A DNA stretch of 1,270 nucleotides from the NCBI RefSeq assembly GCF_003334335.1, contig NZ_QOWQ01000114.1. One strand, given 5' to 3'. This document shows positions 105 to 855 of the stretch, one piece after another. The translations under genes were made by a program, and so were the position numbers. The notes under the pieces were generated by a model. The model saw only the letters and a program-made list of their open reading frames with translations, searched no databases and was not told the DNA's origin. Position 1 is the first letter of the stretch. Each line of letters opens with the position of its first letter. The stretch is from Escherichia coli (GTDB lineage Bacteria > Pseudomonadota > Gammaproteobacteria > Enterobacterales > Enterobacteriaceae).

Positions 105-855
105 ACACTTCGAATGCCAGTTGAGGGGTAAAGACGTCCCGTTCAGCGTTGTAATTAAGTGAACTGGCACTGTTGAATGATTCAATGCGTTCCACAAGAA
201 CTTGCGTACGGGTTTCTTTACTTGCGGGAGCATATGGCGAACCTACCCAGGATTTGTCGATGCCTATATTTCTTGCGACGTTCGTGCTGTCTGCAGACGA
301 AAGCGGTACATGAGTAAAAATGTCTTTATTTAACATCCGTAACCCATGAATCTTGGTGATTGGGTAGCCGTACTGATCTACAACATGACGTATAAGATCG
401 CGTAGTTTAGCCCGACACGCTCTCGGTCGTTTTGCATCGTATTCCCCCATCGAGCCGATGCAGACGCGGGGAAACTCATGGCACAGACGAATAAATCGCT
501 CATCTGGTTCGTTCATGTGCCACACCGGAGCACCAATAAATTTACCGTGAGGCCATGCCGCAATCAGGGCGTCATTCTCTTCACTGGTTCCGCCGATAAC
601 ATCCGGGATAACCGCGAATGAGAAACGAGGGTGATTACCCCAGCGTTCAACAAATCTGTAATATTCATTCCAGTCTATGGCCTTGTTTTTTGTCCAGAAT
701 GTGAATGCACCATTATCAAGAGCAAATGATTGGGTGACTTCGGAAGCCAGATCAATCTGAGCTGGATTAGCAAAACTGATGAATGCGTGTCTGCCTTTCC
801 AGGCTTTCAACGCACAGGTATCGGGAGTTATTGGACCACCGTGAAAATGAATCAT
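103..855 (-). CDS. Putative TGT-superfamily transglycosylase, 250 aa: queuine/preQ0 tRNA-ribosyltransferase-like catalytic core without the zinc-binding subdomain; candidate DpdA-like 7-deazaguanine DNA transglycosylase.
   Basis: Complete 753-nt ORF, ATG 855..853 to TGA 105..103, with GGGAGAG at 865..859 upstream. By-eye collinear motif matches to E. coli Tgt as recalled from memory: FALDNGAF (D47) vs ILTDSGGFQ; FSFAVIPD (D85) vs IVMIFDEC; CIGSMGE (132-138) vs AVGGLAVGE; PITKIHGL vs PRYLMGVG; SSADSTNVARNIG (D189, ARNIG 194-198) vs MFDCVMPTRNARNG. No CxCxxC motif follows. Confidence 0.8.
   Translation of the reverse strand: MIHFHGGPITPDTCALKAWKGRHAFISFANPAQIDLASEVTQSFALDNGAFTFWTKNKAIDWNEYYRFVERWGNHPRFSFAVIPDVIGGTSEENDALIAAWPHGKFIGAPVWHMNEPDERFIRLCHEFPRVCIGSMGEYDAKRPRACRAKLRDLIRHVVDQYGYPITKIHGLRMLNKDIFTHVPLSSADSTNVARNIGIDKSWVGSPYAPASKETRTQVLVERIESFNSASSLNYNAERDVFTPQLAFEV

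Follow-up and report, generated by a model that had tools for sequence, protein, structure and literature searches.

The 250-residue protein encoded on the minus strand of the window, by which we mean the whole 1,270-nucleotide stretch of Escherichia coli DNA analysed here, is probably a stand-alone (singleton) phage DpdA, a relative of tRNA-guanine transglycosylase (TGT) that swaps guanine in DNA for 7-deazaguanine, and the protein was confirmed to lack the zinc module of canonical TGTs. The protein has already been catalogued and zinc-poor phage DpdAs are already in print; the finding is thus not new. Its main practical value lies in the correction of annotation. PGAP labels the protein as a 'hypothetical protein' in approximately 100 complete E. 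coli genomes, and a more apt name would be 'DpdA-family DNA-guanine transglycosylase (predicted)'.

A dpdA-like gene in a lambdoid locus

All genes of the window lie on the minus strand and are arranged as follows.

1..95 (-): 5' part of lambda orf61, the downstream gene, annotated as 'orf61' in PhiR5_1 and adjoining orf63 in VT2-Sakai
96..102 (-): 7-nt spacer GGCCAAT separating the stop codon of dpdA from the start codon of orf61, as seen in the sequence itself
103..855 (-): dpdA-like gene, 250 codons and a TGA stop, probably encoding a singleton phage DpdA with a compact TIM barrel of the TGT superfamily
852..1016 (-): lambda orf60a (DUF1317 family, 54 aa), the upstream gene, identified from the open reading frame list, PHROG 1998 (6e-33) and phage annotations
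1007..1270 (-): 3' end of the lambda-type exonuclease gene (exo), identified from PHROG 149 'exonuclease' (4e-21) and phage annotations

The dpdA start codon ATG (855-853) shares 4 nt with the orf60a stop codon (ATGA). The initial annotation described a clean stop with the next gene beginning 7 nt downstream, and this description was borne out: the dpdA stop codon TGA (105-103) is followed by GGCCAAT and by the orf61 ATG (95-93), the product of which begins MTIEHN, and a GAGG Shine-Dalgarno-like sequence spans the dpdA stop codon. The window is 100% identical to positions 4356-5625 of Escherichia phage PhiR5_1 (PV340545) and 98.9% identical to Shigella phage SfI, and both phages show the order cIII/kil, gam, bet, exo, orf60a, the 250-aa open reading frame, orf61, ..., xis, int. 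The window belongs to the early-left (pL) region of a lambdoid phage. A consensus scan of the coding strand found no promoter-like site for dpdA, which is weak evidence, and the operon structure leads us to expect expression of dpdA from pL along with the recombination genes. The base composition of the window is unremarkable. Of 5426 complete E. coli genomes, 100 carry the gene at an identity of at least 99%, always on the chromosome, and relatives occur in prophages of Enterobacterales, Vibrio and Aeromonas and further afield.

The small open reading frames adjacent to dpdA had been suggested as the source of a partner protein supplied in trans. This suggestion was not supported, as both are ordinary lambda genes that are found without dpdA and are not kept beside its homologues. 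In VT2-Sakai, orf60a and orf61 flank orf63 in place of dpdA, and most of the 249 lambdoid records matching the window share the flanks only. In P22-like phages, Ea genes lie on both sides of the homologue, and in Vibrio, Acinetobacter, Drexlerviridae and Caulobacter phages its neighbours are unrelated to orf60a and orf61. The two genes were thus rejected as dedicated DpdA partners.

Elsewhere in the family, several neighbourhoods point to deazaguanine metabolism. One metagenomic member, P0244, is a QueD-DpdA fusion with a Pfam PTPS match on its N-terminal part, and a QueD-like gene lies directly upstream of the dpdA-family gene of Caulobacter phage DMCA. In Escherichia phage Phleasolo and Acinetobacter phage AB3P2, the gene directly next to the dpdA-family member encodes a short membrane protein. 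The products of these two neighbours are homologous to each other (E 5e-24), and that of AB3P2 shows weak matches to the models TIGR00697 (2.7e-7) and YhhQ (1e-6) for queuosine-precursor transporters, both below the curated cut-offs. This context supports a putative deazaguanine role for the wider family.

Relationship to phage DpdA and conserved putative active-site residues

Homology to phage DpdA was detected by several methods. When the family profile A1 was compared by hhalign with the DpdA of phage 9g, a match of 98.3% probability (E 1.3e-14) was obtained over 154 columns and residues 38-196, and the alignment covers every conserved motif. BLASTP related the protein to 9g DpdA at 5e-08, and tblastn related it to the DpdA of Salmonella phage 7-11 at 1e-27 and also reached the DpdA of Mycobacterium phage Rinkes, the gene of which lies inside a FolE/QueC/QueD/QueE cluster. 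Supplementary Data 1 of Hutinet et al. (2019) includes the SfI protein YP_009147480, which shares 99.6% identity with the product of the window gene, among the DpdAs of phages that encode no further gene of the pathway, and HK106, SPN3UB, BTP1 and 7-11 are catalogued likewise as carrying a lone DpdA. The 'singleton DpdA' proteins were described there as a separate sequence cluster from gamma-proteobacterial phages (Hutinet et al., 2019). The sole match to the protein in the sequence profile libraries was PHROG 887, 'queuine tRNA-ribosyltransferase' (2e-99).

Pfam gave no match to the query at E values up to 10, including the TGT profile PF01702, and no TGT match to the 68 aligned homologues; the validated 9g DpdA has no Pfam match either. 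A missing PF01702 match therefore does not exclude a phage DpdA, and we take the silence of Pfam as a limit of the PF01702 profile that is typical of the phage DpdA lineage and not as an argument against the fold. Searches of NCBIfam and PADLOC with the query returned nothing. Searches of PDB sequences by phmmer and hmmsearch, for which the query and alignments A1 and A2 were used, returned only chance coiled-coil and HipA-like matches, and hhalign of A1 against the single sequence of E. coli Tgt gave no match. Sequence methods alone thus leave the protein unconnected to TGT.

The AF2 model of the protein is confident (pLDDT 93.2) and shows a TIM barrel of eight beta-alpha units. The best four matches to this model among solved structures were Cap10, bacterial DpdA, archaeal TGT and bacterial TGT, with Cap10 ahead of bacterial DpdA by a mere 0.7 Z units, and a Foldseek search of AFDB50 returned matches named tRNA-guanine transglycosylase (E 2e-8). 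The predicted fold is thus a (beta/alpha)8 barrel nearest to the solved structures of the TGT family. The residues expected to form its active site are encoded as follows.

715..717 (-): D47 (LDNGAF), putative base-recognition Asp, invariant; compare 'TDSGGF' of E. coli Tgt and 'LDSGAF' of 9g DpdA
601..603 (-): D85 (IPDVI), putative base-recognition Asp, kept in 67/68 homologues and aligned to 'VLDGIG' of 9g DpdA
517..519 (-): H113 (PVWH), conserved active-site His, kept in 67/68 homologues and invariant in alignment A2, which includes 9g and Rinkes
346..348 (-): H170 (KIHGLRM), equivalent of 9g His196, invariant and aligned to 'KVHGFG' of 9g DpdA
286..291 (-): D189-S190 (SADSTN, on beta8, followed by ARN), kept in 68/68 and 30/30 sequences; compare 'SCDSSS' of 9g DpdA and 'FDCVMPTRNARNG' of E. 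coli Tgt

D47, H170, D189 and S190 were invariant in the 68 diverse homologues, in which H113 was kept in 67 and G134 (of a GSxG motif) in 65; in a 30-sequence set that includes 9g DpdA, D47, H113, G134, H170, D189 and S190 were all invariant. These conserved residues share their order with the Tgt motifs TDSGGF, FDEC, GGLAVGE, MGVG and FDCV..RNARNG. From this motif order and spacing, we infer that D189 is equivalent to the nucleophile of TGT and that D47 and D85 serve base recognition. H113 is possibly, judged by its spacing, the counterpart of H181 of bacterial DpdA. H170 aligns with H196 of 9g DpdA, the residue reported to distinguish DpdA from DpdA2, in which it is absent (PMC6884629).

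Absence of the zinc module

The minus-strand translation of window positions 103-264 is GIDKSWVGSPYAPASKETRTQVLVERIESFNSASSLNYNAERDVFTPQLAFEV*, that is, the 52 residues 199-250 and the stop. This is exactly the tail quoted in the initial annotation, though the coordinates given with it, 106-258, hold 51 codons and correspond to residues 200-250. The claim that the tail is devoid of a Cys or His cluster was correct: residues 199-250 contain zero Cys and zero His. Over its full length, the protein contains four Cys (14, 125, 132 and 147), which form neither CxCxxC nor CxxC. At the 5.6% Cys plus His of this protein, the chance of finding none in 52 residues is approximately 0.05, which is only mildly unusual. 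CxCxxC was, however, absent in 270 of the 270 homologues retrieved, in which the tail after the catalytic D-S motif has a median length of 58 aa; the family-wide absence of the motif, rather than the single tail, carries the weight, and at the family level it exceeds chance.

The missing module had also been regarded as no artefact of truncation, and the comparison with the family bears this out. The homologue family comprises 6182 members at E values up to 0.001, of which the best 120 are almost all 247-252 aa in length. Longer frames that restore a CxCxxC...H module were looked for and none was found; the longer members owe their length to N-terminal fusion, chimerism or low-complexity extension, and hold no Cys/His module. 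Truncation and frameshift were thus ruled out by the uniform length of the family and the content of its long variants. A substitute zinc site composed of C125, C132, C147 and H157, which the initial annotation had named as a possible refutation, was rejected, since conservation of these residues among the 68 diverse homologues is too low: C125 is kept in 22/68, C132 in 23/68 (mostly Ala), C147 in 5/68 (mostly Trp) and H157 in 7/68.

The tail region has the following layout.

106..258 (-): residues 200-250, with a loop to residue 212, helix 213-225 and an acidic end 226-250; no zinc ligands

Helix 213-225 (window positions 181-219) is confident in the model and the end 226-250 is of low confidence. 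We take this helix to be the predicted closing helix of the barrel; in the model, only approximately 20 residues lie between beta8 and the last helix. Among 117 close homologues, residues 199-226 are conserved like the core (0.72-0.87) and residues 227-250 less so (0.61-0.65). With a pI of 4.8 the tail is acidic, and the protein as a whole is near neutral (pI 7.2); by these values, no obvious basic DNA-binding surface is apparent in the sequence.

Comparison with characterized systems indicates what the missing module can and cannot tell. The zinc subdomain of canonical TGTs mediates dimerization (PMC5699537) and stabilizes nucleic-acid binding (bioRxiv 10.1101/2025.04.06.647259). Canonical TGTs, namely bacterial Tgt, ArcTGT and QTRT1, have this subdomain and match PF01702, whereas the window protein has neither and falls short of E. 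coli Tgt by approximately 125 residues. In the Dpd restriction-modification system, bacterial DpdA (S. Montevideo, PDB 7UI4) acts on DNA as a monomer and retains a CXCX2CX22H site, and this site pins an insertion that contributes to the DNA-binding surface (PMC10164549). In PDB entries, bacterial DpdA has 413-436 residues with four insertions, of which Ins8, the one pinned by the conserved CXCX2CX22H, makes up approximately 30% of the structure; the window protein has neither this insertion nor the zinc site. The neighbours of bacterial dpdA are dpdB and dpdC, unlike orf60a and orf61 of the window gene, for which PADLOC gave no match.

Phage 9g DpdA (YP_009032326, DpdA1 type) is closer. Like the window protein, it is phage-encoded and has a homologous catalytic barrel, the same motif set and no CxCxxC...H; a 2016 review had noted that two of its four zinc ligands are not conserved (PMC5699537). 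The window protein is shorter (250 versus 317 aa) and is without the approximately 45-residue N-terminal extension and the longer C-terminal region of 9g DpdA. Furthermore, the window gene has no FolE, QueC, QueD, QueE or Gat-QueC gene nearby, unlike that of 9g, and its phage is a temperate lambdoid, whereas 9g is a lytic member of Queuovirinae. In a survey of the DpdA-family proteins of 9g, 7-11, Rinkes, HK106, Phleasolo and DMCA, CxCxxC was absent in all. The zinc subdomain of the window protein is thus absent by lineage architecture and not by damage, the compact zinc-free form being common to the phage DpdAs examined.

Cap10 of type IV CBASS (PDB 9NTN chain B), which was compared with the window protein by structure match and gene context, works with Cap9 and a CD-NTase and binds protein-conjugated 7-amido-7-deazaguanine, and its structure is without the zinc site (bioRxiv 10.1101/2025.04.06.647259). 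The zinc subdomain is therefore dispensable in at least two branches of the TGT superfamily, phage DpdA and Cap10, and its loss cannot be used to infer the substrate. The initial annotation had argued from the missing module to a non-tRNA substrate such as DNA. DNA stands as the likeliest substrate, but this argument does not: bacterial DpdA acts on DNA with its zinc site, 9g DpdA acts on DNA without CxCxxC, and Cap10 binds a protein-linked base without the site, so that loss of zinc marks a lineage rather than a substrate. It is homology that makes a DNA substrate likely.

Proposed function and alternative readings

Considering the homology and conserved motifs, we propose with reasonable confidence that the window protein exchanges guanine in DNA as a transglycosylase of the DpdA type, with preQ0 or a close relative of it supplied by the host, and that its gene is an accessory cassette in the pL operon. 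By analogy with TGT and phage 9g DpdA, the following scenario may be envisaged. A temperate lambdoid phage would carry dpdA as an accessory cassette of its early-left (pL) operon, placed between orf60a and orf61, so that infection or induction would yield DpdA alongside the products of exo, bet and gam. In double-stranded DNA, the enzyme would flip a target deoxyguanosine into its barrel pocket, where the base would be read by D47, D85 and H113. D189, placed by H170, would then attack C1', releasing guanine and leaving a covalent enzyme-DNA intermediate, which would be resolved by a 7-deazaguanine base, most likely host preQ0 from the FolE/QueD/QueE/QueC pathway. Reliance on host precursors is suggested by the lack of synthesis genes near dpdA. 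The phage DNA would be expected to contain a low level of dPreQ0, or of a derivative such as dADG, at specific sequences, and this would blunt restriction or other DNA-targeting defences.

The 9g dpdA gene alone, when present in E. coli, inserts dPreQ0 into plasmid DNA (PMC6884629). Among phages with a singleton DpdA, 7-11 contains dADG at approximately 0.02% of G, and Orion, the host of which is without the pathway, shows no modification (Hutinet et al., 2019). In our search of the literature on SfI, PhiR5_1 and other lambdoid members, no experimental work, including biochemistry or mass spectrometry, was found. The question raised is whether dpdA-only temperate lambdoid phages mark their own DNA with host preQ0.

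A possible functional divergence of the singleton subgroup has been flagged as needing more work (Hutinet et al., 2019). The singleton DpdAs of temperate phages may conceivably be a diverged branch that does not protect its own phage and exchanges or removes 7-deazaguanines on some other target, for example the DNA of the host or of a competitor, a base linked to protein as in Cap10, or deazaguanine-based immunity of the Dpd or type IV CBASS kind. We consider this improbable, though it is allowed by the absent or trace modification in the two singleton-DpdA phages assayed and by the marginally best structural match to Cap10. Singleton DpdA as a DNA-guanine transglycosylase remains our preferred reading.

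It seems unlikelier still that the protein is a hydrolase, either a DNA glycosylase that removes the base or a metal-dependent TIM barrel of the amidohydrolase type acting through conserved H5, H113, H170 and D189. UniProt has given the automatic name 'Amidohydrolase-related domain-containing protein' to some fragments of the family, a His on beta1, a His on beta5 and an Asp on beta8 loosely recall amidohydrolases, and water could resolve the covalent intermediate of the TGT type if no base came in. An amidohydrolase-like HxH motif was considered and rejected, as its position 3 varies.

We likewise assign a very low probability to a Cap10-like enzyme acting on protein-linked 7-deazaguanine, or to a counter-defence against type IV CBASS or Dpd, either of which would leave the DNA of the phage itself unmodified. 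The lead of Cap10 in the structural comparison is narrow, the significant sequence homology is to phage DpdA, and the PADLOC search was empty. Furthermore, no Cap9 (QueC-like) or CD-NTase gene is annotated in 17 kb of SfI or in the first 11.6 kb of PhiR5_1, and the location of relatives beside QueD, a full preQ0 cluster or precursor transporters fits the use of a free base.

Modification of host or phage tRNA by a queuine/preQ tRNA-ribosyltransferase, which would tune translation in lytic growth, is the least probable reading and is hardly to be expected: the TGT-like fold, early proposals of a similar kind for the TGT-like genes of phages Dp-1 and Rosebush (PMC5699537) and the name 'queuine tRNA-ribosyltransferase' given to the SfI and SPN3UB copies in RefSeq and to PHROG 887 would agree with it, but these names come from automatic annotation, the subdomain serving dimerization (PMC5699537) and nucleic-acid binding is absent along with any PF01702 match, and 9g DpdA, the nearest relative with a tested activity, modifies DNA independently of host tgt.

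Fusions and neighbours of DpdA homologues

Two long homologues of the window DpdA, the predicted DNA-guanine transglycosylase encoded by dpdA, carry a second domain. In P0244, encoded on a metagenome contig (L014:2840-3847), a QueD domain (Pfam PTPS) and a DpdA-like domain of the window family are joined in one 335-aa ORF, and this fusion ties the window DpdA family to 7-deazaguanine synthesis. P0229, from a P2/186-like prophage (L015:6001-7266), is a fusion of a Dam-type DNA adenine methyltransferase (PF02086) with a DpdA-like domain from which the first approximately 45 residues are absent; this protein looks like the product of a deletion joining two neighbouring DNA-modification genes.

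A short membrane protein, approximately 157 aa long, adjoins the DpdA homologue in each of two unrelated phages:

L005:5522-5998, Escherichia phage Phleasolo
L013:3220-3693, Acinetobacter phage AB3P2

The two proteins share 32% identity (E 5e-24), and that of AB3P2 weakly matched two models for transporters of queuosine precursors, TIGR00697 at 2.7e-7 and YhhQ at 1e-6, both under the cut-offs. These membrane proteins may be a phage-borne preQ0/preQ1 importer acting as a partner of DpdA.

The slot between orf60a and orf61

Between orf60a and orf61 lies a slot that is filled by the 753-bp dpdA in the window (103-855, minus strand) and by the small orf63 in VT2-Sakai (L009:472-663). Judged from their shorter matches to the window, most matching lambdoid records presumably also carry orf63 in this slot, which is a cassette polymorphism of the early-left operon. 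Upstream of dpdA, within the orf60a coding sequence, a consensus scan detected the following site:

924-946, minus strand, terminator-like hairpin of nine pairs (six G-C) followed by a T-rich run

The scan returned five terminator-like sites against 1.2 expected.

The start of the gene downstream of dpdA is annotated differently in two phages. In the RefSeq record of SfI, gp33 (L001:7880-8233) is extended and overlaps the final 131 nt of dpdA, whereas the shorter orf61 of PhiR5_1 (L002:4235-4450), a phage that matches the window at 100% identity, starts 7 nt past the dpdA stop; the annotated start of SfI gp33 is probably over-extended. Elsewhere in PhiR5_1, the part of the immunity region that separates kil from cI contains a gene pair annotated as toxin HipA and antitoxin HipD (L002:7915-9488), and SfI carries other genes at the corresponding place.

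Names and labels in public databases

Public names for the window DpdA family conflict. Its UniProt fragments A0A403N5K6, A0A423XPL2, and A0A1E4GG97 are named 'Amidohydrolase-related domain-containing protein', RefSeq phage records and PHROG use 'queuine tRNA-ribosyltransferase', and PGAP assigns 'hypothetical protein' in RefSeq E. coli genomes. A dpdA copy is also contained in GenBank OR850331.1 (1719 bp), labelled 'Staphylococcus phage SA 1298 Kay'. This copy has 68% identity to the window query, equal to that of Salmonella P22-like phages, and the record is probably wrongly labelled or a contaminant.
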